A stretch of 64,000 nt of DNA from Patescibacteria group bacterium AH-259-L05. GTDB taxonomy: Bacteria > Patescibacteriota > Patescibacteriia > UBA2591 > UBA6264. This document shows, piece by piece, positions 1 through 58,770 of the stretch. The notes under the pieces are model-generated. The model worked only from the letters and a program-made list of their open reading frames with translations, was not told the origin of the DNA and searched no databases. A program made the translations under genes and the position numbers. Location of the stretch: assembly GCA_027717985.1 (NCBI GenBank), contig JALLOO010000001.1, positions 80,534-144,533 of the forward strand, read 5' to 3'. How positions within the stretch are numbered: position 1 is the stretch's first letter; every line of letters starts with the position of its first letter.

Positions 1-81
1 CAAGGTCCTACCACCTCGGGAGGTCGGATCTCCAGCCATAGTATTGCCGCATCAATTATTTTACAAAATTATCTTGATCAA

Positions 82-140
82 ATAAGAACCTGACTTCGTC
101 AGAACCTTGAAGTTTGAAAGGAATAATATTTTTATCCAAA
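82..140 (+). repeat. Family-B short repeat, intergenic copy in the 5' leader of the MraY/WecA-type gene (ATAAGAACCTGACTTCGTCAGAACCTTGAAGTTTGAAAGGAATAATATTTTTATCCAAA)
   Basis: Nearly identical to 24905-24983 apart from a 20-nt nested insert there. Shares its core with 58668-58696 and 12808-12894. The core is two AGAACCT direct repeats flanking a CTGAC-TTC-GTCAG hairpin. Confidence 0.8.
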
Positions 141-144
141 CTTT

Positions 145-1242
145 ATGATATATATACTTTTTTTTATTGCAAGCTTTATACTTTCTATTTTTATAACCTT
201 TGTTGTTAAGACTCTTGCGTTAAAACTTAAAATATTAGATTGGCCAGAAGTAGGAGGACGGAAAATACATAAAAAGCCAGTTCCGCTCTTGGGCGGTTTG
301 GCTATTTTTATTACCTTTTTTGTTATTTTGTTTGTTATTTATTTGACGCCACTATGGCCAGAAGGCGCCGTAAAGCTAAAACATTTAATTGGATTATTAT
401 TAGGGGGGATAGTTATAATGGTTGGCGGATTTTTAGATGACAAATATCAATTAAAACCATATTATCAAATTATTTGGCCGATTATTGCAGTAATCATTAT
501 TGGTGTGAGCGGGATGGGAATCGAATATGTTAATAATCCTATAGGAGAAGGATATGTACATCTTGATACATATAAAATTGAGGTTATACGTTTGAGCGGG
601 ATCCCCTATTATTTTACGCCTTTGGCTGATATAGTAACGTTTGTATGGTTAATGCTGGTAATGTATGCTACTAAACTTCTTGATGGATTAGATGGATTGG
701 TAAGCGGTATAACTTTTTTGGGGGCGTTAAGTATTGCAGGATTGTCTTTTTTGACCATATTTTTTCAGCCTGATGTAGGATTAATGGCACTACTATTTGC
801 CGGCGCAGTATTAGGATTTTTATTATTTAATTTTCACCCTGCAAAAATATTTTTAGGAGAAGGAGGAAGTTTATTTGCCGGCTTTATGTTAGGGGCCCTT
901 GCTATTATTTCAGGGGGGAAATTAGCAACTACGTTTTTAATTGTGGGCTTAGCAGTATTTGATTTGTTTGGGGTAGTGGTGAGAAGGGTCATAATTTCAC
1001 ATGGTTCAGCATTTTTGCCTGATAGGGCTCACCTACATTTTCGTCTGCTCGAAGTTGGGCTTTCTCATAAAAAAGCAGTGTTATTGTATTGGATTATTGC
1101 GGTTTTGTTTGGTATTGCCGCTCTATTTTTACGCACCACCGGAAAAATTGTTGCATTAGCCATTTTATTGGCACTCTCAGTTATCTTAATTGGTTTTTTG
1201 CCTGCAAAAAAGGCTCAAATTGACAAACGAGGTGTTTCATGA
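145..1242 (+). CDS. Glycosyltransferase family 4, MraY/WecA-type polyprenyl-phosphate sugar-1-phosphate transferase
   Basis: 365-aa multi-TM ORF with motifs FLDDKYQLKP, KLLDGLDGL and NFHPAKIFLGEGGSLFAGF, typical of the MraY/WecA family. MraY versus WecA cannot be separated by eye. Confidence 0.8.
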   Translation: MIYILFFIASFILSIFITFVVKTLALKLKILDWPEVGGRKIHKKPVPLLGGLAIFITFFVILFVIYLTPLWPEGAVKLKHLIGLLLGGIVIMVGGFLDDKYQLKPYYQIIWPIIAVIIIGVSGMGIEYVNNPIGEGYVHLDTYKIEVIRLSGIPYYFTPLADIVTFVWLMLVMYATKLLDGLDGLVSGITFLGALSIAGLSFLTIFFQPDVGLMALLFAGAVLGFLLFNFHPAKIFLGEGGSLFAGFMLGALAIISGGKLATTFLIVGLAVFDLFGVVVRRVIISHGSAFLPDRAHLHFRLLEVGLSHKKAVLLYWIIAVLFGIAALFLRTTGKIVALAILLALSVILIGFLPAKKAQIDKRGVS

Positions 1243-2822: not shown

Positions 2823-4985
2823 ATGAAAACTGATAAAATTCGAAAAACATTTTTAGATTTTTTTAAGAGAAGGGGTCATGAAATTATTCCCTCATCTTCG
2901 TTAATTCCTGCTGATCCGACAGCATTATTTACTTCAGCAGGTATGCAGCAATTTGTGCCGTATTTGTCTGGTGAGGTTGAACCGCCCTATCGCCGTGCCG
3001 CAAGTGCGCAAAAGTGTTTTCGTACCTCTGATATTGATGAGGTAGGTGATGAATATCATCATACCTATTTTGAAATGCTTGGTAATTGGTCATTTGGTGA
3101 TTATTTTAAGACTGAGGCAATTCAATGGGCATTGGAATTATTGGTAAAAGAATATAAGTTACCACAGGATAAGCTTTGGGTGACTGTATTTTTAGGAGAA
3201 AGAGGCGTGTCCAAAGATACGGAAGCAGCAAAGCTGTGGGAGCAATTTGGCGTTGATAAGAAAAGAATTAAAGAGTTTGGTATGGAGGATAATTTTTGGG
3301 GGCCGGTTGGTTCAACCGGGCCATGCGGGCCATGTACTGAAATTCATTATGATCAAGGCAAAGATTTTCAAAAAGAAAAATGCTCTCTTAATGGATGCGG
3401 GCCGAATTGTAGTTGCGGGAGATTTGTTGAAGTATGGAATTTAGTATTTATGGAGTATCGCAAGACTCGTGAAGGTAAATATGAAAAATTACCTGCGCAA
3501 AACGTTGATACCGGCGCGGGATTAGAACGTCTCGCCGCAGTGCTTCAAAACAAATCATCAGATTATGAAACAGATTTATTTTTGCCCATAGTTAATACAA
3601 TTAAAGAGCTTTCGCCAATTTCTTTGTCATCTCCCCCTCTGTCTTCCCGAGCGACCCCTCCTTTGTCATCCCGAGCGACCCCTCCTTTGTCATCCCGAGC
3701 GACCCCTCCTTTGTCATCCCGAGCGACCCCTCCTTTGTCATCCCGAGCGACCCCTCCTTTGTCATCCCGAGCGACCCCTCCTTTGTCATCCCGAGCGACC
3801 CCTCCTTTGTCATCCCGAGCGACCCCTCCTTTGTCATCCCGAGCGACCCCTCCTCTGTCTTCCCGAGCGACCCCTCCTTTGTCATCCCGAGCGACCCCTC
3901 CTTTGTCATCCCGAGCGACCCCTCCTTTGTCATCCCGAGCGACCGAAGGGAGCGAGGGATCCCAACAAAATGAAAAAGCAGTTCGCGTTATTGCTGATCA
4001 TATGCGCGCCGTGTGTTTTTTAATTGCCGATGGCGTGATTCCTTCAAATGAAGATCGCGGATATATGCTTCGCCGGTTAATGCGAAGGGCGATGCGCTAT
4101 GCTCGCAGGCTTCATATGGGGAAAAATTTTTTAATCCCCATTTGCCAAGTGATCATTGATGTATATAAGGGGCAGTATCCCGAATTACAAAAAAAACAAA
4201 ATGATATTTTAACATTGGTGCAAAACGAAGAAGAAAAATTTATGAAAAGCCTGCGTGATGGATTGAAACGGTTTAGAGTATTAGTACAAGAGACAAAAAA
4301 TCAAGACGAGACTGTTTTAGATCCTCAAAAAACATTTCAACTCTATGATACGTATGGCTTCCCGATTGAATTAACCATTGAGATGGCGCAGGAAAAGGGA
4401 TTAACAGTGGATGAAGTTGGGTTTCAAAAAGAGTTTGAGCGTCATCGAAAAATATCACGCGCCGGCGCAGTGCATAAGTTTAGTGGTGTTGGTGAGTGGG
4501 GAGATAAGGTCGCGCCCCAGCACAGCGCTACCCATTTGCTCCATCAAGCATTGCGCGATGTACTAGGCGAGCATGTGCATCAAGATGGTTCTGATTTAAC
4601 GCCTGAGCGCCTGCGGTTTGATTTTACACACCCTAAGCCATTAACAAAGGAAGAGATTAAAGCAATTGAAGATTTGGTAAATAAGCAAATTGAGCGCGAT
4701 CTCATCGTGACGGTTGAAAAAAAGAAATTTGAAAATGCGGTTAAAGCTGGTGCGCTTGCTTTTTTTAGAGAGAAATATCCTAAAGAAGTGACCGTCTATA
4801 CTATGGGGGATTTTTCAAAAGAGGTATGTACCGGGCCGCATGTTAAACATACGAACCAAATTGGAAAATTTAAAATTGTAAAAGATGAAGCGCTTTCTGC
4901 AGGAGCGAGAAGGATTAGAGCAGTGGTTGAGGGGAGTACATATAAACCAAAAGGGATTTCAGTTTTTGATTCTAAAAGCATTTAA
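2823..4985 (+). CDS. alaS: Alanine--tRNA ligase, short form (no C-Ala domain), carrying a 13x8-aa repeat insertion
   Basis: FTSAGMQQF, RVIADHMRAVCFLIADGVIPSNEDRGY, and the editing-domain motifs HSATHLLHQAL and CTGPHV. 720 aa including about 114 aa encoded by the repeat. Confidence 0.93.
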   Translation: MKTDKIRKTFLDFFKRRGHEIIPSSSLIPADPTALFTSAGMQQFVPYLSGEVEPPYRRAASAQKCFRTSDIDEVGDEYHHTYFEMLGNWSFGDYFKTEAIQWALELLVKEYKLPQDKLWVTVFLGERGVSKDTEAAKLWEQFGVDKKRIKEFGMEDNFWGPVGSTGPCGPCTEIHYDQGKDFQKEKCSLNGCGPNCSCGRFVEVWNLVFMEYRKTREGKYEKLPAQNVDTGAGLERLAAVLQNKSSDYETDLFLPIVNTIKELSPISLSSPPLSSRATPPLSSRATPPLSSRATPPLSSRATPPLSSRATPPLSSRATPPLSSRATPPLSSRATPPLSSRATPPLSSRATPPLSSRATPPLSSRATPPLSSRATEGSEGSQQNEKAVRVIADHMRAVCFLIADGVIPSNEDRGYMLRRLMRRAMRYARRLHMGKNFLIPICQVIIDVYKGQYPELQKKQNDILTLVQNEEEKFMKSLRDGLKRFRVLVQETKNQDETVLDPQKTFQLYDTYGFPIELTIEMAQEKGLTVDEVGFQKEFERHRKISRAGAVHKFSGVGEWGDKVAPQHSATHLLHQALRDVLGEHVHQDGSDLTPERLRFDFTHPKPLTKEEIKAIEDLVNKQIERDLIVTVEKKKFENAVKAGALAFFREKYPKEVTVYTMGDFSKEVCTGPHVKHTNQIGKFKIVKDEALSAGARRIRAVVEGSTYKPKGISVFDSKSI
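3621..3962 (+). repeat. Family-A repeat: tandem array of 13 x 24 bp (CCCCTCCTTTGTCATCCCGAGCGA-type) plus terminal hairpin arm, in frame in alaS
   Basis: 3633-3944 is 13 phased 24-nt units translated as (PPLSSRAT)13. Two units carry the CTGTCTTCC variant. The 3945-3961 arm GAAGGGAGCGAGGGATC pairs with the last unit. Confidence 0.95.
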
Positions 4986-6298: not shown

Positions 6299-7633
6299 AT
6301 GGTAAAAATAGTTTTAAAAAAAATGATTCCCAATCAATTTTTATTGTTATATCATAAGATTTTGGCATATGTAGCTGCGTTTTTGTATGGGCATCCAAGT
6401 AAAAAAATGATTGTTATTGGCGTAACCGGAACTTCAGGCAAGTCAACCGTAGTTAATTTAATTGCAAGCATTTTAGAAGCTGCTGGACATAGATGTGGTT
6501 TAACTACCACATTTAATTTTAAAATTGGCAATAAAGAGATTGTTAATACCATGCGCATGACCATGCCGGGTAGATTTAAGCTGCAAAGTCTATTAAAGCA
6601 AATGCATAGAGCTGGATGTGAGTATGCTATTATTGAAACAACCTCTCAAGGAATTGTTCAATTTCGACATATAGGCATTAATTATGATATGGCCGTGTTT
6701 ACGAATTTATCTCCTGAGCATATTGAATCACATGGAAGTTTTAAAAAGTACCGTCAAGCTAAAGAAGTGCTATTTAAACATGTAACTAAAAAGAAGAATA
6801 AGGTAATTAATGGCAAGAAGATTAAAAAAATAATCGTGGTAAATAGTGATGATGAAAATGCAGAACATTTTTTAAAGTACAGGGCTGATGAAAAATATGA
6901 ATATGGAATACAATGTAAAAGACAAAGTACAGGGCATAACATTATTAAAGCAGAGGATATTGTATCAGGCATTAGGGGGGTAGAATTTAGTATTCAAGGG
7001 ATGGCATTTCAATTGCAGTTGCTGGGTACATTTAGTGTATATAATGCGTTAGCAAGTATAAGTGTTGCGTTATCACAGGGCATAGATTTATCTACGTGCC
7101 AGAAGACATTAGAGGGCATACAAAATATGCCAGGGAGAATGGAAATAGTAGCGCGTGAACCATTAGTTATTATTGATCAAGTATATATACCTGACTCCTT
7201 AGAGAAAGTTTATAAGACTATTGAAAGTTTCAAGTATCAAGTATTAGATTCTAAGACGATTTGTGTATTTGGTGCAGCAGGCGGGGGAAGAGATACGTGG
7301 AAGCGACCAGTTTTGGGAAGAGTTGCACAAAAATATTGTGATTATATAATCGTTACTACTGAAGATCCATACGATGAAGATCCACAAGTAATTATTAATG
7401 AGGTAATTTCTGGTATAGCGAATAATCAAGACTTAATTAAACACAAAAAACTTTTTATGATTCTTGATCGTGAGGAAGCTATTGAAAAAGCATTAGAAAT
7501 TGCACAAAAAAATGATATTGTTGTTATAACAGGTAAGGGCGCAGAGCAATCAATAGTGATAAAAGGTAAAAAAATACCATGGAGTGATAAAAAAGTAGTA
7601 AAAAAGTTGTTAGAGCATAAAAGGAGTGTGTAA
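6299..7633 (+). CDS. Mur ligase family protein (MurE-like UDP-N-acetylmuramoyl-tripeptide synthetase)
   Basis: P-loop VIGVTGTSGKST, Mur central and C-terminal domains, and TTEDPYDEDP (compare the MurE DNPRxEDP region). Confidence 0.72.
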   Translation: MVKIVLKKMIPNQFLLLYHKILAYVAAFLYGHPSKKMIVIGVTGTSGKSTVVNLIASILEAAGHRCGLTTTFNFKIGNKEIVNTMRMTMPGRFKLQSLLKQMHRAGCEYAIIETTSQGIVQFRHIGINYDMAVFTNLSPEHIESHGSFKKYRQAKEVLFKHVTKKKNKVINGKKIKKIIVVNSDDENAEHFLKYRADEKYEYGIQCKRQSTGHNIIKAEDIVSGIRGVEFSIQGMAFQLQLLGTFSVYNALASISVALSQGIDLSTCQKTLEGIQNMPGRMEIVAREPLVIIDQVYIPDSLEKVYKTIESFKYQVLDSKTICVFGAAGGGRDTWKRPVLGRVAQKYCDYIIVTTEDPYDEDPQVIINEVISGIANNQDLIKHKKLFMILDREEAIEKALEIAQKNDIVVITGKGAEQSIVIKGKKIPWSDKKVVKKLLEHKRSV

Positions 7634-7848: not shown

Positions 7849-10800
7849 ATGCCCATCTCTACTAAACAACGTAAAACATTTTTTACTTCAAAATTTGATC
7901 TGTCCTTGCCTGATTTAGTTGAAATACAAAAGGCTTCGTATGATTGGTTTTTGAAAAAAGGAATTAAAGAATTATTTGAAGAATTCTCTCCTATCGAAGA
8001 TGCAGTAGGGAGAAATCATGAATTACATTTTAAAAGTTGTTCATTAGGAGCACCAAAATTTGATGAAATCACGAGTAAAAATCGCAACCTAACCTATGAA
8101 GCGCCCTTGACCGTAAAAGCGCGCTTAATTAATAAGAAAACTGGCAAGAAGACTTCGCAAGAAGTATATTTTAGTGACATTCCGCTGATGACAAAACGCG
8201 GAACGTTTATTATTAATGGTATTGAGCGTGTTGTAGTGCAACAGCTTGTGAGGTCGCCCGGCGTATTCTTCTCAGGAGAATTAATCAAAGGGCGACTTTT
8301 TTATGGCGCAAAGATTATTCCTGACCGTGGTGCATGGTTTGAGCTTGAAACTGATACGAAAGGTGTGATGTGGGTGCGCATTGATAGACAGAGGAAAACG
8401 ACCATAACCGCACTCCTGAGAGTTTTTGAGCTTGGTACGGATAAAGAAATTTTAGATGCGTTTAAACAATTTAAAGACGGATCAGGACTAGATTATATTA
8501 AAGCAACCCTTGAAAAAGACCCTTCCTCGACTGAACAAGAGGGGTTGATTGAGGTGTATAGAAAAATTCGGCCAGGAGAGCTGGCAACGGTTGATAATGC
8601 TAAATCATTGATTTATGCTATGTTGTTTAAATCAAACCGGTATGATCTAAGCAAGGTGGGGCGGTATAAAATGAATCAACGACTCGGTTTTGATAAAAGT
8701 GTAAAAGAGCGCGTATTGCGCCAGAAAGATATTGTTGCGGTAATTGCTGAGATGATACGACTGAGTATCAATCAATCATTACCTGATGATATCGATCATT
8801 TAGCGAATAGACGAGTACGTGCTGTTGGTGAATCAGTTCAGAATAGGATGCGTGTAGGAATGTTACGGCTTCAAAGAATTATTCGGGATAGAATGAGTGT
8901 TGTTGAGCAAAAAGCATTAACGCCAGGACAATTGATTAATGTGAGGCCCATTACGGGCGTGATTAGAGAGTTTTTTATGTCATCGCAATTATCTCAGTTT
9001 ATGGATCAAACCAACATTCTTTCAGAGCTTGAGCACAAACGCAGGTTAACCGCGGTAGGCCCGGGAGGTCTCACCCGAGAGCGTGCTGGCTTTGAGGTTC
9101 GCGATGTACATAGAACGTATTATGGGAAAATTTGTCCGATTGCAACACCGGAAGGCCCAAATGTTGGTTTAGTAAACCATCTAAGCTGTTATGCACGACT
9201 GAGCGAATATGGCTTTATGGAGACCCCGTATCGTAAGGTAGTAAAGGGAAAACTTACTAATGAAATTGCCTATTTAAATGCGCATGAGGAAGAGCAACAT
9301 ATTTTAGCGCCCTATTCTACTCCCATTGATAAAAATGGGAACATTAGTGAAGAAGGAGTTGAAGCACGAATTCATGGCCGTCCAGGATTTTGTCGGTCTA
9401 AAGAAGTTGAATTTATTGATGTAGCGTCAAATCAAGTTGTCAGTGTAGCGACCAGTTTGATCCCCTTTTTAGAGCATGATGATGGTGTACGGGCTTTGAT
9501 GGGGACTAACATGCAACGACAAGCAGTGCCGTTAGTAAGACCAGCTTCTCCTCTTGTGGGAACGGGAATTGAGGCGCGTATTGCAAAAGATTCTGATCAT
9601 ATGATTCATGCTCAAAAAGCAGGACGAGTAACGAGTATTGATGCAAATCATGTTACTATTTCTTACACTTCAGGCGGAGAAGAAATATATTACCTTAATA
9701 AATTCCAACGATCTAATTTTGATACATGCTTTAATCAGCGGCCAACCGTAGCCAAGGGACAAAGGATAAAAGCTGGCGAGATTTTAGCAGAAGGACCTTC
9801 AATTGAAAATGGAGAGTTAGCCTTGGGACAAAATATATTGGTTGCGTTTATGCCATGGGAGGGAGGAAATTATGAAGATGCCATTTTAATATCGTCACGA
9901 TTAGTGCAAAGTGATCTGTACTCTTCGCTTCATATTGATGAACACACCATTGATATTCGCGAGACAAAGTTTGGACCGGAAATGATGACGTGTGATATTC
10001 CTAATGTAAGTGAAGAAAAGTTAAAAAATCTTGATGATGAAGGAATTGTGCGCATTGGTGCAGAGGTACAGTCTGGAGATATTTTAGTGGGCAAAATTAC
10101 ACCAAAGGGCGAGATTGAGCTGACCGCAGAAGAAAAACTTTTGCGTGCGATTTTTGGAGAAAAAGCGCAGGATGTTCGTGACTCCTCTTTGTATTTAGAG
10201 CATGGTGAGCATGGGAAAATTATTGATATAAAAATATTTTCCCGTGATAAAGGAGATAAATTGCCGTCAGGGGTAATTAAATCTATAAGCGTGTTAATTG
10301 CTGATCTGCGTAAGATACAAATTGGTGACAAAATGGCAGGCCGTCATGGAAATAAAGGAGTTATATCGCGCATTGTGGCCGAGGAAGATATGCCATATTT
10401 AAAAGATGGCACACCCGTTGATATTATTTTAAATCCATTAGGTGTAGTTTCTCGAATGAATTTAGGACAAATTTTAGAAACACATTTAGGTTTAGCTGCC
10501 CAGGCATTAGGGTATAAGGCAGCAAGCCCTGTATTAAATGGCGTTACCATGATTGAGATTAAACGTGAACTTAAGCGTGCAGGGTATTCTGAGAGCGGTA
10601 AGGCTATGCTCTATGATGGAAGAACCAGCGAGCAATTTAAGGAGCCCATAACCATTGGCTATATTTACATGATGAAACTCAATCATTTGGTTGAAGACAA
10701 AATTCATCAACGTTCAATTGGGCCATATTCATTGATTACCCAGCAGCCATTAGGTGGAAAAGCGCAGTTTGGAGGGCAGCGATTTGGAGAAATGGAAGTA

Positions 10801-11079: not shown

Positions 11080-14000
11080 ATGCCGACACCATCAACAATT
11101 TCCACATTAACGTTACCATCTGATAAAAGAAGACATCAGGCTGATTTTGATGCGATACGTTTACATCTCGCATCACCAAAAGAGATTATGGAGGAATGGT
11201 CATATGGGGAGGTTACGAAGCCAGAAACCATTAATTATCGATCTCGTAAGCCAGAGCGCGACGGCTTATTTTGTCAGAGAATTTTTGGTCCGGTAAAAGA
11301 CTGGCAGTGCGCGTGCGGCAAATATAAAAAGCTGCGCTATCGTGGTATCACGTGTGATCGTTGCGGCGTTGAGATAACGCGATCGTTAGTACGGCGTGAA
11401 CGCTTGGGCCATATTAAACTTGCTGCACCAGTAGCCCATATTTGGTTTTTGCGCAGCGTCCCATCAAAAATCGGGCTGTTGTTAGATATGTCAGTTGCGG
11501 CATTAGAAAAAGTGGCTTATTTTGCTAATTTTATCATTACCCATGTTGATGAAGATTTAAAAGAAAAAGCGCAAGAAAAATTAGAGCAAGAGTTTAATGA
11601 TGAGAAAAAAGCGCTTAAACATGAAAAACATAACGATTCAAAGGAATATGCAAGGAGACTTGAGGATCTAACGACAGCATATAAAGAAACAAAGCGTGAA
11701 ATAACAGAGTTATATGAAAAGCGTTTGTTAACTGAACTAGAATATCGCGAGCTTTCGATGAGCTATGGGCATATTTTTGAGGCTGGTATTGGTGCAGAGG
11801 CAATTTTAAAATTACTTGAAAATCTTGATTTGTCTAAACTTGCACGAGAACTTGAAAAGAAGCGGGGAGAAACAACCAATCCTACTAAAAAGAAAAAATT
11901 ACTCCAGCGTATAAAGTATGTCCACAATTTTATTACCAATAATGTCAAGCCAGAGTATATGGTGCTCCGTGCAGTGCCCGTGATTCCACCAGAACTAAGG
12001 CCATTAGTGCCGTTAGATGGCGGCAGGTTTGCGTCTTCAGATTTAAATGATTTGTATCGACGGATAATCAATCGCAATAATCGTTTAAAACGATTGTATG
12101 ATTTGCATGCGCCAGAGGTGATTTTACGCAATGAAAAGAGAATGCTTCAAGAAGCAGTTGATGCATTAATTGATAATGAAATGCGTTCAGGGAAAACAAC
12201 CATTGCCTCGACTGGGCAGCGAAGGCCCTTAAAATCTTTAGCTGATATTTTAAAAGGAAAGCAAGGGCGATTTCGACAGAATTTACTTGGGAAGCGCGTA
12301 GATTATTCAGGCCGATCTGTTATTGTGGTTGGGCCGCGCCTGAAGTTAAGTCAGTGCGGTCTGCCAAAGCTTATGGCAGTGGAATTGTTTAAGCCGTTTA
12401 TTGCTTCTGAATTAATTAAGCGAGAAATTGTTCATAATGTGAGATCCGCCAATCGTTTAATTGAGACAGGGACTGAAGAGGTATATGCTATTTTAGAAGA
12501 AATTATTAAAGATACACATGTATTATTGAATCGTGCGCCAACACTTCATCGATTAGGCATTCAAGCGTTTCAGCCTGTATTGATTGAAGGAAAAGCGATT
12601 CAAATTCATCCCTTGGTATGTGCAGCATTTAATGCTGATTTTGATGGAGATCAAATGGCGGTACACGTTCCTATTACGAGTCAGGCACGTGATGAGGCAA
12701 AAAATATTATTCTCTCAACACACAATTTGTTAAAGCCGGCAACGGGCGAGCCAATTGTGACCCCAACGCAAGATATGATCTGGGGCGCATATTATATGAC
12801 CTATTGTGAGCGGAGCGAACAACAAGGTTCTGCGAAGCATGGTTCTTATGACGAGCGGAGAGAGGAACAAGGTTCTGCGAAGCACGGTTCTTATATTCAC
12901 AAAAAAAGTAAAAAAGAATATCCGAATTTTAGTAGTATCGATGAAGCAGTGTTGGCATACTCAATCGGGAAAATTACGCTTCAAGAGAAAATTAACGTTA
13001 GAGTTGATTCTGAGCGCAGACAAGTGAGTGTGGGGCGGTTATTATTTAATGCAATTCTGCCAAAAGGAATTTATACTATGGATACCGTGGTTGATAAAGG
13101 GACGTTAAAACAAATTGTAATTAAAACAATTCAAAAATATGGCAGAGATAAGACAGTTGAATTGTTGGATCAAATTAAACAAACTACACTCACGTATTTA
13201 ACAGGATCAGGGCTTTCGTGGGGAATGGATGATTTGCCTGACTTGGAGCAAAAAAAAGAGATTCTTGCTGAGGCAGAAAAACGCATTGATGAGATTAGAA
13301 ACCAATATGAAACCGGTTTGTTATCTGAAAATGAACGATATTTAAAAAGTATCGAAGTGTGGATTAGCGCAAAAGATAAAATTACTGAGGTGGTGAGAAA
13401 ACGAGATCCTGAATTTAGTCCTATATTTTCTATGGTTGAATCCGGTGCACGGGGTTCATGGGCACAGCTTACCCAAATGTTTGGTATGCGTGGTATTGTA
13501 TCTTCGCCAACCGGCAGATTAATTGAGCTTCCTATTAAATCTTCATTTAAAGAAGGATTTAATGTGTTAGAATATTTTATTTCTACCCATGGTTCGCGAA
13601 AAGGTGTATCTGATACCGCGCTTCGTACGGCGAGTGCGGGATATTTAACCCGGCGCATGGTTGATGTATGTCAGGACATTATTATTACTAAAAATGATTG
13701 TAAGAGTGCAAAGGGTTTTAAGTTCACGCGTGAAGACAATACAAAAATGGGAGAAAATTGGCAAACGCGTTTATTTGGCAGAGTAGCAGAAAAGGCAATC
13801 CATGACCCAAAATCAAAGGCTGTTATTGTTCGCAAAAATGATGTTATATCATATGATAAGGCAGAGGAAATACAAAATGCAGATCCTGAAGAGGTAAGGA
13901 TTCGATCGGTATTAACGTGTCAATCAGTGCGCGGTATATGCGCGCGATGCTATGGCTATGATTTAAGCTATAACGAGCCGGTTAAGATTGGTACACCAGT

Positions 14001-15012
14001 CGGTATTATTGCAGCTCAAAGTATTGGTGAACCAGGAACCCAGCTGACGCTGAGGACGTTTCATACAGGAGGTGTTGCGGGTAAAGATATTACACAAGGG
14101 CTTCCGCGTGTTGAAGAGCTGTTTGAAGTTAGGCCAGTAAAGCGGAAAGCAGTTATGGCAAAGCATAAGGGCACTGTTAAGATTATCTCATCAGATGATC
14201 AAAAAAGAGTTAGGATTACCTATCTGAGCAGACAAGAAGATACGTATACCATTGCGGGCAAAAAAGCCAAGCTTAACGTTAAGCAAGGGCAAAAATTAAA
14301 AAAGGGCGATAGTATTGCAATATTACCCTCCTTGTCATCCCGCGCCTCGCGCGGGAAGACAAAAGAAGTGTCATCTTCTGGGAAGAAAATCACGGCGCGG
14401 CATAGTGGAGAAGTTGCTATTGAAGATACGGTGGTTACGGTAACATATGAGGGGGAAAAACATGAAGAGTATGATGTGGCCGGATATACCATATGGGTTA
14501 AAGACAAAGATAAGGTAGAGAAGGGTCAGCAATTAACTGATGGAAGTTTGGATTTGCGTGAACTCTATACATTGCGCGGCAAAGAAGAGGTAGAAAAATA
14601 TATATTGCGGGAAATTCAATATATTTATTCATCTCAGGGGCAAAGATTAAATGATAAGCATGTTGAGCTCATTATTCGTCAAATATTTTCCCGCGTATTA
14701 GTAGTGGATTCTGGTGATACTGATCTTTTGCCCGGAGAGATTGTACCCAAAGCGTATGTAATTGAAGCAAATAAGATAGTTGAAAAAGAAGGTAAGAAAT
14801 CGGCCAAAGTAAAGGAGCTGCTCACTGGTATCACCCGGGTTTCACTCTCGACCGATAGCTGGCTTTCTGCTGCGAGTTTTCAAGAAACATCTCGTGTGTT
14901 AGTTAATGCGGCAATTAGCGGGCGGCCTGATTATTTACGCGGGTTAAAAGAAAATGTAATTGTGGGACAATTAATCCCTGCGGGAACCGGTTTGGAATCT
15001 AGAAAGGCCTAG
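11080..15012 (+). CDS. rpoC: DNA-directed RNA polymerase subunit beta-prime, with two repeat-derived in-frame insertions
   Basis: Zn finger CACGKYKKLRYRGITCDRCGV, catalytic NADFDGDQMAVH, and trigger-loop region DITQGLPRVEELFE. Confidence 0.96.
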   Translation: MPTPSTISTLTLPSDKRRHQADFDAIRLHLASPKEIMEEWSYGEVTKPETINYRSRKPERDGLFCQRIFGPVKDWQCACGKYKKLRYRGITCDRCGVEITRSLVRRERLGHIKLAAPVAHIWFLRSVPSKIGLLLDMSVAALEKVAYFANFIITHVDEDLKEKAQEKLEQEFNDEKKALKHEKHNDSKEYARRLEDLTTAYKETKREITELYEKRLLTELEYRELSMSYGHIFEAGIGAEAILKLLENLDLSKLARELEKKRGETTNPTKKKKLLQRIKYVHNFITNNVKPEYMVLRAVPVIPPELRPLVPLDGGRFASSDLNDLYRRIINRNNRLKRLYDLHAPEVILRNEKRMLQEAVDALIDNEMRSGKTTIASTGQRRPLKSLADILKGKQGRFRQNLLGKRVDYSGRSVIVVGPRLKLSQCGLPKLMAVELFKPFIASELIKREIVHNVRSANRLIETGTEEVYAILEEIIKDTHVLLNRAPTLHRLGIQAFQPVLIEGKAIQIHPLVCAAFNADFDGDQMAVHVPITSQARDEAKNIILSTHNLLKPATGEPIVTPTQDMIWGAYYMTYCERSEQQGSAKHGSYDERREEQGSAKHGSYIHKKSKKEYPNFSSIDEAVLAYSIGKITLQEKINVRVDSERRQVSVGRLLFNAILPKGIYTMDTVVDKGTLKQIVIKTIQKYGRDKTVELLDQIKQTTLTYLTGSGLSWGMDDLPDLEQKKEILAEAEKRIDEIRNQYETGLLSENERYLKSIEVWISAKDKITEVVRKRDPEFSPIFSMVESGARGSWAQLTQMFGMRGIVSSPTGRLIELPIKSSFKEGFNVLEYFISTHGSRKGVSDTALRTASAGYLTRRMVDVCQDIIITKNDCKSAKGFKFTREDNTKMGENWQTRLFGRVAEKAIHDPKSKAVIVRKNDVISYDKAEEIQNADPEEVRIRSVLTCQSVRGICARCYGYDLSYNEPVKIGTPVGIIAAQSIGEPGTQLTLRTFHTGGVAGKDITQGLPRVEELFEVRPVKRKAVMAKHKGTVKIISSDDQKRVRITYLSRQEDTYTIAGKKAKLNVKQGQKLKKGDSIAILPSLSSRASRGKTKEVSSSGKKITARHSGEVAIEDTVVTVTYEGEKHEEYDVAGYTIWVKDKDKVEKGQQLTDGSLDLRELYTLRGKEEVEKYILREIQYIYSSQGQRLNDKHVELIIRQIFSRVLVVDSGDTDLLPGEIVPKAYVIEANKIVEKEGKKSAKVKELLTGITRVSLSTDSWLSAASFQETSRVLVNAAISGRPDYLRGLKENVIVGQLIPAGTGLESRKA
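12808..12894 (-). repeat. Family-B-related tandem duplication (42 + 45 nt) in frame in rpoC
   Basis: Two consecutive copies of GAGCGGAG(C/A)GA..CAAGGTTCTGCGAAGCA(T/C)GGTTCTTAT encode ERSEQQGSAKHGSY / DERREEQGSAKHGSY. The core matches CAAGGTTCTGACGAAGTCAGGTTCTTAT at 58668-58696. Confidence 0.8.
14327..14365 (+). repeat. Family-A repeat (long-palindrome subtype) in frame in rpoC
   Basis: CCCTCCTTGTCATCCCGCGCCTCGCGCGGGAAGACAAAAG. A 14-bp stem (TTGTCATCCCGCGC / GCGCGGGAAGACAA) with one mismatch. Encodes [13 protein letters not shown]. Confidence 0.85.
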
Positions 15013-15040
15013 ATTTTAGATTTAAGATTCTAGATTTATG

Positions 15041-15076: not shown

Positions 15077-15108
15077 GATCACATTAATGATCTTGAATTA
15101 CGAAATAG

Positions 15109-15182
15109 CCCCACCTTGTCATTCCGAGCGAACTGCCCCCTTTTGTCATTCCGAGCGAGCCCAAAGGCGAGCGAGGAATCTC
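15109..15182 (+). repeat. Family-A repeat, intergenic copy (two TTGTCATTCCGAGCGA units plus GAGCGAGGAATC arm) in the ftsK leader
   Basis: CCCCACCTTGTCATTCCGAGCGAACTGCCCCCTTTTGTCATTCCGAGCGAGCCCAAAGGCGAGCGAGGAATCTC. Same architecture as 3921-3961 and 18121-18169. Confidence 0.9.
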
Positions 15183-17405: not shown

Positions 17406-18149
17406 ATGTCGTTTACTTCAAAACAAGTGAGATCAGATACCTTAGGGCATGTGTTACAACAAACGCGCGAGGATAAGGGATTGAGTCTTAAAGATGTAGA
17501 ACAAAGTACGAGCATTGTTAAAAAATATTTAGAATATTTAGAAGCAGATGATTTTTATAAATTCCCCAGTACAACATATACGCGCGGGATTCTCAAACGT
17601 TATGCAGAGGCGTTAGAATTGGATGCGCGAAGTATTATAAATCAATGGGAACGAGAATATAGCGCTCCTTTGTCATCCCGTCCCCCCTTGTCATCCCGTT
17701 CCCCTTTGTCATCCCGTTCCCCTTTGTCATCCCGCGCGAAGCGCGGGAAGACAAAGGAAAAGTTGTCATCCCGCATCCCACTAAAGTGGGCTTCTCCTAA
17801 AAACGTTGTAGTACTGGCAATCCTTATCTTGATTTTATTATATATTGGTGTTAATATTAAAACAGCGATAGCACCACCATTAATTGAGATTATACATCCG
17901 CCAGATGAATTTATAGCTTCAAAGTCCAGCATTGTCGTACAAGGTACAACAAAACCTCATATAGAAGTATTTATAAACAATCAATTAATTGGCATCGCTG
18001 ATGCTTATGGGGGCTTTGAACAAGTCGTGGCCTTATTGCCTGGTTTAAATACCATTGAGATTTCAGCCAAGAAAAAATATTCGCGTATGCGAACCATATA
18101 CCGCCAGATCGTATTAGAAGCCCCCTCCCTTGTCATCCCGAGCGACTGA
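17406..18149 (+). CDS. RodZ-like HTH/transmembrane protein, with repeat-derived internal segment and repeat-derived C-terminus
   Basis: N-terminal XRE-type HTH ([38 protein letters not shown]), one TM ([16 protein letters not shown]) and a C-terminal beta-rich domain, as in RodZ. Confidence 0.6.
17665..17790 (+). repeat. Family-A repeat cluster (4 x 18-nt TTTGTCATCCCG units, a 17-bp-stem palindrome, one more unit) in frame in the rodZ-like gene
   Basis: Encodes [41 protein letters not shown]. The palindrome is CCTTTGTCATCCCGCGC-GAA-GCGCGGGAAGACAAAGG at 17721-17757, with a GCGAAGC centre. Confidence 0.9.
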
Positions 18150-18169
18150 AAGGAGCGAGGGACTGATTC
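18121..18169 (+). repeat. Family-A repeat spanning the rodZ-like stop codon and the recA leader
   Basis: CCCCCTCCCTTGTCATCCCGAGCGACTGAAAGGAGCGAGGGACTGATTC. It encodes the last 9 aa (APSLVIPSD) and the TGA stop (18147-18149) of the upstream gene. Confidence 0.9.
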
Positions 18170-24448: not shown

Positions 24449-24477
24449 ATTATATCATCGTTTTTTAAACCAGTCAA
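24449..24477 (-). promoter_or_regulatory. Predicted consensus promoter (TTGACT-17-TATAAT) for hicB
   Basis: On the minus strand, -35 is at 24477-24472 (inside the 3' end of the galE-like gene) and -10 at 24454-24449. Confidence 0.5.
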
Positions 24478-25453
24478 TAGTTAATTTTAGGCCGGTATTT
24501 AAATCAATTTTTGGCTTCCACCCAAGCTCTCTTTTTATTTTTTCCCAATCAAGCGCACTTCGCTGCAACTCTCCTTTAATAGGCGGTTCATATTTTTTAG
24601 ATATTTTAGAATTAGTAAATTGAGTTAATTTTTTAAAAATTTGATTAACACTAGTTTGCTTCCCAGTGCCAACATTGTATATACCTATTTTATTTCCTCC
24701 AAGAGCCAATAAATTCGCACGTACCACATCTTCAACATACACATAATCCCGTGTTTGTCTGCCAGATCCGTTAATAGTACATGGTTTGTTGTTCAATATA
24801 TTGAGAATAAATATAGCAATAACTCCTGCTTCTGCAAGCACATTTTGTCGTGGGCCATACACATTTGCGTATCTGAGCACAACGTAATCCAGCCCAAATT
24901 GTTTATAAGAACCTGACTTCGTCGCGCTAAGCGCGACTTTGTCAGAACCTTGAAATTTGAAAGGAATGATATCTTTATCCAAATTATAATAAATTTTTAA
25001 ATATTTTTCAACCGTGAGCTTGCTTAACCCATAAGGCGAAGTTGGCTGAGCAGTGTAACTTTCAAGTGTAGGTATTTTTTTTGTTTCCCCATAGATAGCC
25101 CCACCAGTTGAAGAGAAAATAATTTTTTTTACTTTATATTTTTGCGCGTTTTCAATAACATTAAGCGATCCTAATATATTAACATCAGCGTCGAATACAG
25201 GGCTTTCTAAAGAGGCTCTTAAATTGATCTGTGCGGCACAATGAAATACAATGTCAGGTTTTTCACTAATAAAAATCTCATTAACTTTTTTATCTCGAAT
25301 GTCTATCTTAAAGAATTTTGCTTTTGGATTTATATTTTTTTTTAATCCAGTCGATAAATCATCAATTATATATACTTTATGCCTATTTTGAATGAGAGAG
25401 TCCACAAGGTGAGAACCAATAAACCCCGCCCCACCAGTTACTAAAATTTTCAT
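24455..25453 (-). CDS. NAD-dependent sugar epimerase (UDP-glucose 4-epimerase GalE-like), with a repeat-derived 26-27-aa insertion
   Basis: ILVTGGAGFIGSH and YGLSKLTVEKY (YxxxK). The conserved run ...KIYY / KQFGLDYVVLRYANVYGPRQ is interrupted by NLDKDIIPFKFQGSDKVALSATKSGSY. Confidence 0.8.
   Translation of the reverse strand: MKILVTGGAGFIGSHLVDSLIQNRHKVYIIDDLSTGLKKNINPKAKFFKIDIRDKKVNEIFISEKPDIVFHCAAQINLRASLESPVFDADVNILGSLNVIENAQKYKVKKIIFSSTGGAIYGETKKIPTLESYTAQPTSPYGLSKLTVEKYLKIYYNLDKDIIPFKFQGSDKVALSATKSGSYKQFGLDYVVLRYANVYGPRQNVLAEAGVIAIFILNILNNKPCTINGSGRQTRDYVYVEDVVRANLLALGGNKIGIYNVGTGKQTSVNQIFKKLTQFTNSKISKKYEPPIKGELQRSALDWEKIKRELGWKPKIDLNTGLKLTIDWFKKR
24905..24983 (+). repeat. Family-B repeat, full-length copy with nested GCGC palindrome, in frame in the galE-like gene
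   Basis: Collinear with 82-140 apart from an extra GCGCTAAGCGCGACTTTGTC. The palindrome GTCGCGC-TAA-GCGCGAC is at 24921-24937 and is flanked by GACTTCGTC / GACTTTGTC. Confidence 0.9.
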
Positions 25454-58401: not shown

Positions 58402-58650
58402 TTACCAATCTTCAATAATTTTTTTTGTTTTATTTTTTAATTTATGATATATGCTGGCGGTTTTCCTCTCAGCTTTTGGCGAGATTAATCTTAATATTTC
58501 TGCTCCTACAATTTTATATCTACCGCCAACTTTATTGGCTCTGATAATACCTTTTTTTAGCCAACGTTTAATTGTACTTTCACTTATTTTTAAAAAATTT
58601 CTGGCTTCTTTTGTAGTATAAATTTTATTTGGTTTAATTTCATCCATCAT
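58402..58650 (-). CDS. Excisionase/MerR-superfamily helix-turn-helix DNA-binding protein
   Basis: YTTKEARNFLKISESTIKRWLKKGIIRANKVGGRYKI matches the excisionase-family HTH signature. 82 aa. Confidence 0.65.
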   Translation of the reverse strand: MMDEIKPNKIYTTKEARNFLKISESTIKRWLKKGIIRANKVGGRYKIVGAEILRLISPKAERKTASIYHKLKNKTKKIIEDW

Positions 58651-58667
58651 AACGATTTAATTGAAAA

Positions 58668-58696
58668 TCAAGGTTCTGACGAAGTCAGGTTCTTAT
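58668..58696 (-). repeat. Family-B repeat core in the 5' leader of the HTH gene
   Basis: The plus strand reads TCAAGGTTCTGACGAAGTCAGGTTCTTAT, the reverse complement of 82-110. It lies 18 nt upstream of the ATG at 58650. Confidence 0.85.
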
Positions 58697-58722: not shown

Positions 58723-58751
58723 ATTATATCAAAGGTGTCAATAGGTGTCAA
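58723..58751 (-). promoter_or_regulatory. Perfect consensus sigma70 promoter TTGACA-17-TATAAT
   Basis: On the minus strand, -35 is at 58751-58746 and -10 at 58728-58723. Probable start of the 58.6-to-22.9-kb transcription unit(s). Confidence 0.6.
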
Positions 58752-58770
58752 CAGGTATCAACAGGTTTAT
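58731..58770. repeat. Four 10-bp phased direct repeats (AAAGGTGTCA ATAGGTGTCA ACAGGTATCA ACAGGTTTAT) overlapping the -35
   Basis: Helical-phase spacing of the A-GGT-TCA core, directly upstream of and overlapping the consensus promoter. Confidence 0.75.

Follow-up and report, generated by a model that had tools for sequence, protein, structure and literature searches.

A probable recent in-frame insertion of a two-unit hairpin repeat array in the RNA polymerase β′ gene of a Patescibacteria group bacterium

Introduction

In the classical view, REPs do not occur in coding sequence, and we know of no function for the Gut-1 hairpins (RF01706). Palindromic repeats that lie in frame inside genes have been described in Rickettsia as the Rickettsia palindromic elements, or RPEs (Ogata et al. 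2000, summarised in PMC10969869), and pneumococcal BOX and other intragenic MITEs, including ERIC, Correia and the cyanobacterial MITEs, have been reviewed as well (PMC10969869; PMC3184786). Our literature searches returned nothing relevant for the sequence motif described below, nor for CPR bacteria in combination with REP, MITE or intragenic repeats.

Here we analyse a 90-nt segment of rpoC in AH-259-L05 (hereafter L05), together with its relatives in the window, that is, the whole 64-kb stretch of DNA analysed, and in other genomes and metagenomes. We consider it very probable that these 90 nt are a recent in-frame insertion of a two-unit array, which derives from a small, non-coding hairpin repeat family.

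Results

The 90-nt segment of rpoC

The rpoC product is 100% identical to the NCBI β′ entry of L05, all five of five Rpb1 Pfam domains are found in it, and the catalytic NADFDGD motif occupies residues 518-524. The bounds of the insert (Table 1) were set by alignment to the sister genome AH-259-L07 (hereafter L07). TAT stands directly 5′ of the insert, which itself ends in TAT, so that 12802-12891 is an equivalent placement. The first-pass annotation had read the protein here as YYMTY-CERSEQQGSAKHGSY-DERREEQGSAKHGSY-IHKK, which is correct on translation, and had placed the segment directly after the conserved QDMIWGAYYMT block of β′, at a lineage-variable position. This is indeed where it lies, as the length of β′ at this site differs among orthologues and among solved structures, with Thermus β′ carrying a longer segment. 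In an AF2 model of a β′ fragment, the insert has a pLDDT of ~40 and no secondary structure, with flanks at 84-95. The GC content is 51% in the insert, 40% in the remainder of rpoC and 35% in the window.

A repeat search of the window returned 42-nt copies at 12808-12849 and 12853-12894, spaced by 45 nt, and Tandem Repeats Finder reports a period of 45 with 1.9 copies, 90% matches and a score of 146 for 12808-12894. The insert thus divides into two 45-nt units, identical at 38 of 45 positions, each composed of a short GAGCG-type module and a 27-nt core of the form CAAGGTTCTG..GGTTCTTAT.

Table 1. Coordinates in the window of the rpoC insert, its parts and related features
Feature	Coordinates	Strand	Description
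rpoC (RNA polymerase β′)	11080..15012	+	host gene, intact ORF, 1310 aa
In-frame insertion in rpoC	12805..12894	+	90 nt, aa 576-605 = CERSEQQGSAKHGSYDERREEQGSAKHGSY
Unit 1 module	12805..12822	+	(T)TGT-GAGCGGAGCGA-ACAA, short stem closing GAGCG..GCGA motif
Unit 1 core	12823..12849	+	CAAGGTTCTGCGAAGCATGGTTCTTAT; degenerate hairpin TGC-GAA-GCA
Unit 2 module	12850..12867	+	GACGAGCGGAGAGAGGAA; 6 of 18 positions unlike unit 1 module
Unit 2 core	12868..12894	+	CAAGGTTCTGCGAAGCACGGTTCTTAT; one synonymous difference from unit 1 core
Second in-frame insertion in rpoC	14323..14385	+	"family A" GC-rich palindrome, 51 nt net
Intergenic copy	82..141	-	canonical 28-nt core (82-109) and AT-rich hairpin module
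GT4 gene	145..1242	+	core 82-109 lies 36-63 nt upstream, reverse to the gene
In-frame insertion in galE-like epimerase	24899..24979	-	81 nt, 27 aa DKDIIPFKFQGSDKVALSATKSGSYKQ
galE-like host ORF	24455..25453	-	
Canonical 28-nt core	58669..58696	+	19-46 nt upstream of HTH_17 gene (58402..58650, -)
Sigma-70 consensus promoter	58751..58723	-	12/12 match, upstream of core 58669..58696

A dispersed family of hairpin repeats

The CAAGGTTCTG..GGTTCTTAT core, with linkers of 10 and 9 nt, is matched exactly four times in the window, where shuffled sequence would give 0.00 matches. A covariance model recovers exactly five copies at four loci in the window and no other significant match, and a looser, mismatch-tolerant scan of the same stretch gave no further copies above the null rate. 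The rpoC segment is therefore a member of the repeat family found at the other three loci, as had been proposed in the first-pass annotation: its linkers are exact, and both of its cores match covariance model R1 (E = 5.6e-10), the unit 1 core at 32.5 bits. Only a 3-bp stem is left in the rpoC core, and its fold shows no gain in stability over shuffled sequence (z = 0.09), which makes it a degenerate member of the family. The unit 1 module is built like the module that precedes the core in other family copies, for example TTAC-GAGCGAAGCGA-GTAA, and that of locus L110 reads TTGTGAGCGATAGCGAACAA. The unit 2 module is identical at 12 of 18 positions to the module of an array in a phosphoglycerate mutase gene (locus L232).

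Among the remaining copies in the window, the galE insert, which holds the fifth and longer copy, joins an AT-rich module, common to the intergenic copy at 82..141, to a long core (24905-24952) with a nested GTCGCGC-TTA-GCGCGAC hairpin. Its RNA fold has a z of -4.95, and the nested hairpin recurs in one intergenic copy of L07. The galE insert was not found in 35 homologues, nor in the solved structure 4zrm. Both coding hosts in the window read the element as QGS..GSY, and both intergenic copies are reverse to the downstream gene (GT4 on the plus strand, HTH_17 on the minus strand), all as first annotated. The perfect sigma-70-type promoter (Table 1) places the core at 58669..58696 in the predicted HTH_17 5′ UTR, in reverse orientation. 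The reverse orientation was not found to be a rule for such leader copies, which elsewhere occur both ways.

Beyond the window, the family is represented at more than 240 loci in Patescibacteria and in gut or rumen Clostridia (at least 119 from the genome scan and at least 120 from the metagenome scan). Each unit combines a short, variable hairpin module with a core that follows it. In this core a variable stem-loop is framed by (C)AAGGTTCT(G) and (CA)GGTTCTTA(T), two linkers that hardly vary, and the hairpin in the middle shows compensatory changes, as in the pair 11-21, which is CG in 16 cases, AU in 10, and GC and UA in 1 each. The observed covariation of the stem is reached in 0 of 500 shuffles, and the G-U/U-U base of the stem is found on one strand only. 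Copies lie mostly between genes, usually in head-to-tail arrays of 2-4 units, which at some loci are perfect tandem arrays, and in 18 of 160 copies the stop codon of the neighbouring gene is the TAA of the element's own end.

No Rfam family covers the element, either in the window at the gathering threshold or, at E-value thresholds, in eight element-rich loci and positions 12700-13000. In viral contigs, which served as a background control, all 33 of 33 pattern matches proved to be random or coding and to lack a hairpin. The exact rpoC core variant has no source copy in the metagenome contigs by exact search. No protein family is enriched beside the copies when the 1279 ORFs of the 119 listed loci are clustered. 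Y1/IS200-like genes near three copies were considered as movers and set aside, as they have flanking repeats of their own that differ from the element (Y1_Tnp in L055 and L022), and tblastn of these proteins gave no match in the window or in locus L120.

Copies inside genes

Among the matches listed, about 13 events in ~240 arrays (~5%) are in-frame arrays inside real genes. Besides rpoC, the hosts are galE, HflX, RsmG, LspA, phosphoglycerate mutase (iPGM), Acs, ThrC, Pol I, Tgt, TatD and a MiaB-like gene. The array in phosphoglycerate mutase carries SERSEEQGSAHRAGSY three times, which gives almost the peptide of the rpoC insert. The copy in Tgt (L057) shows up as 48 additional residues when the protein is set against solved structures. 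All 13 of the 13 validated coding copies are in frame and stop-free, a count that carries an ascertainment caveat because open frames were searched for. Together with the strong depletion of copies from genes, this agrees with the broader part of the first-pass annotation: coding copies have to be stop-free and in frame. Across the family they are rare and biased 10:3 towards the QGS orientation. Selection against stops and frameshifts would explain both this rarity and the forward bias.

Comparison with the sister genome

The 90-nt insert is a presence/absence polymorphism. It is missing from L07 rpoC as a clean gap, in genes that share 94% nucleotide identity and 90% protein identity. The first-pass annotation had suggested an alignment with β′ orthologues; in it, the insert is absent from all 60 of the closest (90-57% identity, L07 included). 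Absence from L07 and from 59 other orthologues points to a recent in-frame insertion. TAT on both sides of the insert is seen in a single pair of empty and filled alleles, and the general test for a TTAT/TAT target-duplication pattern comprised only 12 cases.

The rpoC alignment alone contains three element indels between L05 and L07, with more in rpoB and in spacers, and family copies lie at different positions in L07, where two were found within 23 kb. By this evidence, the elements move within the AH-259 lineage. The insertion at 14323..14385 is present in L05 and not in L07 in the pairwise alignment of rpoC; it is likewise element-derived, an event separate from the 90-nt insert, and represents the same phenomenon in another family.

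Discussion

The first-pass annotation had described the rpoC segment as a duplication, and had proposed that copies persist in genes in one open orientation and one open frame. A combined version of these ideas, in which slippage or unequal exchange doubled a single inserted 45-nt unit where it lay, with a strict filter that admits only QGS..GSY coding copies, is conceivable but in our opinion doubtful. The tandem arrangement itself stands, since the units are adjacent, in register and largely identical, and local amplification in the family is evident from perfect tandem arrays at other loci. Doubling in place is nevertheless uncertain, as the differences between the units are distributed unevenly, with 6 in the 18-nt modules and 1 in the 27-nt cores (Fisher p = 0.012), a pattern that an older, pre-formed array fits better. 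Module divergence (6/18) also exceeds the 12.5% divergence at four-fold sites since the split of L05 and L07 (binomial p = 0.019). Given that arrays of 2-4 units are the norm in the family, a pre-formed dimer may have been inserted as one piece. With regard to the filter, neither coding copy in the window departs from the QGS..GSY reading, coding copies overall favour this orientation, and the canonical 29-mer, including its leading T, does have stops in all three reverse frames, as had been stated. The stop claim does not extend to the rpoC variant, however, in which two of the three reverse frames lack a stop, and at least one reverse frame is open in 76 of 77 core variants. Reverse copies are found in intact Tgt (L057), TatD (L235) and MiaB-like (L249) genes, the very case that had been named beforehand as refuting a single open orientation, so that the strict filter fails. 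A single open frame does not hold either, as the ten forward coding copies are spread over the three frames (QGS..GSY in 6, KVL..VLI in 2 and SRF..FL in 2).

Three further explanations concern what the 90 nt are rather than how they came to be doubled. The element could act as RNA in the rpoC message, as a regulatory or processing structure, or it could be an intervening sequence that is cut out ahead of translation. The covarying stem of the family is in line with this, as is the fact that canonical copies, owing to the G-U pairs that flank the stem, fold better on the CAAGG strand, on which they resemble weak intrinsic terminators. Yet the rpoC copies fold no better than shuffled sequence, intergenic copies between co-directional genes have no consistent orientation (16 same, 29 anti), and excision would make the frame and the lack of stops in 13 of 13 coding copies needless, bearing in mind that open frames were searched for; we regard an RNA role as very unlikely. 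Slightly harder still to credit is that the 30 residues form a functional, lineage-specific insertion domain of β′, akin to the sequence insertions in RNA polymerases of other bacteria and kept for changed regulation of the polymerase. The reading frame is intact and the site is naturally variable in length, Thermus having a longer segment here, but the residues are of low complexity and predicted to be disordered, and they are unique to one genome, being missing in a sister at 90% protein identity, so that neither conservation in the lineage nor a folded domain was found. The peptide motif is encoded by the element and accordingly turns up in unrelated enzymes as well, which counts against a domain of β′. 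The least probable explanation of all is that the insert arose as an artefact, during single-cell amplification or in the assembly. The DNA does come from a single amplified genome, repeats are easily mis-assembled, and many MAG copies of the family lie at contig ends; against this, the insert has clean, in-frame junctions and is located far from the ends of a 154-kb contig, in its middle, and comparable in-frame copies are present in many independent assemblies.

The reading we prefer is thus the recent insertion of a two-unit array. After the split from L07, the 90-nt array would have entered rpoC between Tyr575 and Ile606 (that is, between ACC TAT and ATT), 52 residues past NADFDGD, where the length of β′ already varies. 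As the length of the insert is a multiple of three and its frame is free of stops, it would be translated as a 30-residue peptide, which is hydrophilic, rich in Gly, Ser and Glu, and predicted to form a disordered loop. The insertion would have been tolerated rather than purged, and the peptide is probably translated and neutral. More tentatively, the AAGGUUCU-hairpin-AGGUUCUUA unit might represent an undescribed, cross-phylum class of mobile hairpin arrays with near-invariant linkers and covarying stems, possibly spread by host-encoded or single-strand-specific means with a preference for TA-rich sites and stop codons, and acting as an active source of new peptide segments in AH-259 β′, β, AlaRS and GalE.

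If so, such a class would be an active origin of new peptide segments in essential proteins of ultra-small genomes. Independently of that reading, active selfish repeats are present even in the most reduced bacterial genomes and can enter essential genes (β′, β, AlaRS, GalE) without killing them, so that core proteins can readily acquire loops specific to a lineage. For annotation and phylogenetic practice, insertions seen in CPR marker genes, rpoB and rpoC among them, can stem from such elements, and should be masked in alignments rather than interpreted as adaptive domains. The family is a widespread one with conserved structure outside Rfam, its linker motif gives a starting point in the search for the machinery that moves it, and the L05/L07 pair provides dated filled and empty sites.

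How does the family compare with the repeats described previously? Like REP/BIME sequences, it consists of imperfect palindromes of 20-40 nt, mostly extragenic and often at gene ends, and its arrays are mosaics in which conserved linkers connect the hairpins. It was not assigned to REP/BIME, as it has no 5′ GTAG, its flanks are AAGGTTCT and GGTTCTTA, and its hairpins are direct, not alternating; a REP with RAYT arrangement was rejected too, on account of the unrelated repeats carried by the Y1_Tnp genes near copies and of the negative tblastn result in the window and L120. With Gut-1 it shares successive hairpins whose stems vary and covary, a short conserved linker between them and an occurrence in gut Clostridia, and in locus L063 Gut-1-like units adjoin a family copy (39.3 bits against a threshold of 50). 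The Gut-1 linker is GUGAAAU, however, and not AAGGUUCU or AGGUUCUUA, and no family copy reaches any Rfam threshold. Similarity to pneumococcal BOX and intragenic MITEs is seen in the modular, internally repeated module of roughly 45 nt and in occasional copies inside genes, with in-frame fusions. In contrast to MITEs, no terminal inverted repeats are evident in the family and no related autonomous insertion sequence was seen, and its target duplication is uncertain, amounting only to TAT.

The closest analogue appears to be the RPEs, likened by behaviour and not by sequence. As far as the summary of RPEs in PMC10969869 goes, they differ in being longer, roughly 100-150 bp, whereas family units of 45-81 nt fall below this length, and in being confined to one genus, whereas the family spans phyla (Patescibacteria and Clostridia). 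The family is also modular, with a module and a core, tends to form tandem arrays, and has only ~5% of its arrays inside genes. Within the same summary, the likenesses are several. Both are dispersed and non-autonomous, the present family in many copies (four loci in the window, two in 23 kb of L07 and more than 240 elsewhere), and both are hairpin-forming as families, as seen here in the covarying stems and the galE copy but not in the degenerate rpoC copies. Both differ in presence or absence between close relatives and have no linked transposase. Finally, both lie in frame in unrelated housekeeping genes of a small-genome bacterium, where they add a short peptide and leave the reading frame of the host gene intact.

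A tandem family-B insert in beta-prime

The tandem family-B-like repeat in rpoC reported by the first-pass annotation is real, and it belongs to a wider phenomenon than was then proposed. Tandem Repeats Finder returns a 45-nt period (1.9 copies, score 146), a second repeat search confirms the pair, exact matches to the common core CAAGGTTCTG..GGTTCTTAT number four in the window and none in shuffles, and a covariance model finds exactly five family-B copies in the window and nothing else significant. In context, the insert reads YYMTY-CERSEQQGSAKHGSY-DERREEQGSAKHGSY-IHKK. The window's beta-prime is 100% identical to the NCBI record of Patescibacteria group bacterium AH-259-L05 (L05; contig of 154 kb). 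In the orthologue alignment that the annotation had proposed, the 30 inserted residues are unique to the query among the 60 closest beta-prime proteins, and the nearest relative, the sister genome AH-259-L07 (L07; 90% protein identity), passes directly from YYMTY to IHKK. The two rpoC genes share 94% nucleotide identity, and ACCTAT and ATTCAC flank a clean 90-nt gain in L05; TAT stands immediately before the insert and again as its final three bases. GC content is 51% in the insert versus 40% in the remaining rpoC (window, 35%). Judged by sequence comparison, the 90 nt in L05 rpoC is a recent insertion. Separately, the C-terminal end of rpoC and the following spacer differ between L05 and L07.

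The insert starts 52 residues past NADFDGD, directly after the conserved TPTQDMIWGAYYMT block, and orthologue lengths differ exactly here, in agreement with the variable position expected at the outset. Solved structures also vary in length at the site, the Thermus segment being longer than that in the 8i23 chain (1188 residues). An AlphaFold2 fragment model (beta-prime residues 441-807, 54 homologues) predicts no regular structure across the insert, with pLDDT of about 40 versus 84-95 on either side.

Of the 45 positions, 7 differ between the two units: the 18-nt module accounts for six and the 27-nt core for one, a synonymous change (Fisher p = 0.012). Four-fold degenerate sites of L05 and L07 rpoC have diverged by 12.5%, which sets an upper bound on the neutral divergence of anything arising after the split, and the module divergence of 33% exceeds this bound (p = 0.019). 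A single unit could have doubled in place within rpoC, or a two-unit array could have formed before it arrived there. Given the unequal divergence of module and core, and given that arrays are the usual state of family B, arrival as a pre-formed array appears no less likely than duplication within the gene.

Features of the window and of related loci
Feature	Position	Strand	Remarks
rpoC	11080-15012	+	ORF, 1310 codons
rpoC tandem repeat	12808-12894	+	family B
Family-B copy	24905-24952	-	fifth, longer copy; inside galE-like gene
galE-like insert	24899-24979		27 residues, DKDIIPFKFQGSDKVALSATKSGSYKQ
Family-B copy	82-141		intergenic
Hairpin-like segment	1-40		GC-rich, CAAGGTCCTACCACCTCGGGAGGTCGGATCTCC; family-B-linker-like start, otherwise different; cut by window edge
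Family A palindrome	14323-14385		51 nt, in-frame rpoC insert, L05 only
Family A palindromes	15108-15182, 17667-17770, 18122-18162		
Family A relative	L07 locus ~11731-11760 (window ~13005)		30 nt, in rpoC, reading TPEVSSRASEGSQ; L07 only
GC-hairpin inserts	L07 locus ~7143-7196 (window ~8473-8491)		15 + 21 nt, inside rpoB, L07
Alanyl-tRNA synthetase	2823-4985	+	ORF
Repeats therein	3585-3992		24-nt unit, ~13 in-frame repeats (CCTTTGTCATCCCGAGCGACCCCT)
Short tandem repeat	15010-15038		TAGATTT, 7/14-nt period, immediately 3' of rpoC stop codon
Promoter	58723-58766	-	TTGACA-17-TATAAT, upstream TG
HTH_17 gene	58402-58650		small, excisionase-type
Gut-1-like units	Clostridial MAG locus, 10-139		adjoin family-B copy

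Structure and spread of family B

Scans for the linker pair, allowing any 5-35 nt in between, run on one genome per species and separately on metagenomes, yielded at least 119 family-B loci in genomes and at least 120 in metagenomes. The free middle is almost always a perfect stem-loop whose sequence varies from copy to copy (CTGAC-GAA-GTCAG, CTGCC-GAAG-GCAG, CTGATGC-GAA-GCATCAG). Across 31 distinct aligned cores the variable stem pairs covary (pair 11-21: CG 16, AU 10, GC 1, UA 1), 0 of 500 shuffles reach the covariation score of the real cores, and the real structure pairs in 95.6% of cells versus less than 51% for slid partners. On viral contigs, used as background control, none of 33 matches to the linker pattern carried the hairpin. 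The matches listed come from Patescibacteria, including Nealson-, Sacchari-, Shapiro- and Paceibacteria, and from Clostridia of the gut or rumen. A second small hairpin usually lies upstream of the core, often TTAC-GAGCGAAGCGA-GTAA, and head-to-tail arrays of two to four units are common; the rpoC units are built alike, with TTGT-GAGCGGAGCGA-ACAA followed by the core. The AT-rich hairpin module upstream of the galE core recurs in the intergenic copy near the window start. RNA folding is strong for the galE copy (z = -4.95), and for the rpoC copy is no better than in shuffled sequence (z = 0.09).

Most arrays among the matches listed are intergenic. Between co-directional genes, 16 share the genes' orientation and 29 oppose it (p = 0.07), which argues against a strictly transcript-oriented function. 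In 18 of the 160 hairpin-type copies listed, a long opposite-strand ORF ends exactly at the TAA within the element's ATAAGAACC end; the genes stopping there, at loci L043, L155 and 16 others from genomes and metagenomes, include DnaK and ribosomal protein L7/L12. This pattern suggests that elements may insert at a stop codon or across one, or else into TA-rich targets.

Beside another window copy, a perfect sigma-70 consensus promoter, embedded in 10-nt iteron-like repeats (TCAACAGGTG x3.9) upstream of the HTH_17 gene, looks from its sequence like a putative autoregulated operator.

Coding copies and the orientation filter

About 13 insertion events in the roughly 240 arrays listed lie within real genes, in frame and stop-free, each checked against Pfam or solved structures. 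Ten are forward (the QGS..GSY orientation: rpoC, galE, a sigma-70 region 4 protein, HflX, RsmG, LspA, phosphoglycerate mutase, Acs, threonine synthase, Pol I) and three reverse (Tgt, TatD, a MiaB-like enzyme). The galE residues are missing in 35 epimerase homologues, as they are in the solved structure of the Thermotoga enzyme (4zrm). The phosphoglycerate mutase of metagenome locus L232 holds three perfect 48-nt units, each reading SERSEEQGSAHRAGSY, whose module matches the unit 2 module of rpoC at 12 of 18 positions; since nearly the same peptide occurs there, "ERSEEQGS..GSY" is a signature of the element and not of beta-prime. On this contig (Ga0210019_1001679) two genes are affected, and acetyl-CoA synthetase carries several different element-derived repeats, including KNLACGKNLV.. 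four times; the locus is a case of extreme intragenic colonisation.

The first-pass annotation had proposed that insertions survive in genes only in one open orientation and frame. The canonical 29-mer is indeed closed in all three reverse frames, but the rpoC variant is open in two, and 76 of 77 distinct cores have at least one open reverse frame (mean open frames, forward 2.29, reverse 1.60). The three reverse coding copies are the very finding named beforehand as decisive against a strict orientation filter, and the forward copies use all three frames, so the strict form of the filter is refuted and the mechanistic claim is unsupported. What survives is the general idea of selection against stops and frameshifts, which would explain why few copies are coding and why most of these are forward. 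The 10:3 bias is not significantly different from the forward fraction of about 0.59 that stop content alone would give, by a rough estimate on the cores.

Turnover between L05 and L07

Besides the 90-nt insert, the rpoC alignment holds two more element-type indels, both related to family A, the separate GC-rich palindromes of these genomes (CCTTTGTCATCCCGCGCG-AA-GCGCGGGAAGACAAAGG, with relatives that carry GAGCGA motifs), which also occupy the rpoC-ftsK spacer and sites within an HTH_25 gene or at its end. Additional element-type indels occur over 15 kb of synteny, the GC hairpins in L07 rpoB among them; with inserts of L07 in both rpoB and rpoC, both essential genes have been struck independently in both lineages. 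L07 has its own family-B copies at sites other than those of L05, one sharing a nested GTCGCGC-TTA-GCGCGAC hairpin with the L05 galE copy. These differences show turnover of the repeats between two very closely related genomes. In alanyl-tRNA synthetase, the 24-nt unit is built out of a single arm of the family A palindrome, and the Pfam tRNA-synt_2c match is broken in two around the repeats.

Comparison with known systems

In the literature searched, no description of such elements from Patescibacteria turned up, which is no proof that there is none, and no Rfam family matches family B. No linked protein was found near the copies at the loci listed. IS200-like Y1 genes lie near a few copies; their flanking repeats are unrelated to family B. 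Of the features of a MITE, terminal inverted repeats, target duplication and a parent IS, none is established here, and family B lacks the defining features tested of REP/RAYT. It also lacks those of the Gut-1 motif, which is nearest in design, with hairpins separated by GUGAAAU. At L063, the Clostridial locus, Gut-1-like hairpin-linker units (RF01706, 39.3 bits, below threshold) adjoin a family-B copy, which suggests mosaic arrays assembled from different hairpin-linker families. In behaviour, family B resembles the palindromic elements of Rickettsia, which are selfish hairpin repeats that sit in frame within many housekeeping genes (PMC10969869), but differs from them in unit size, modular tandem build, low intragenic fraction and cross-phylum spread.
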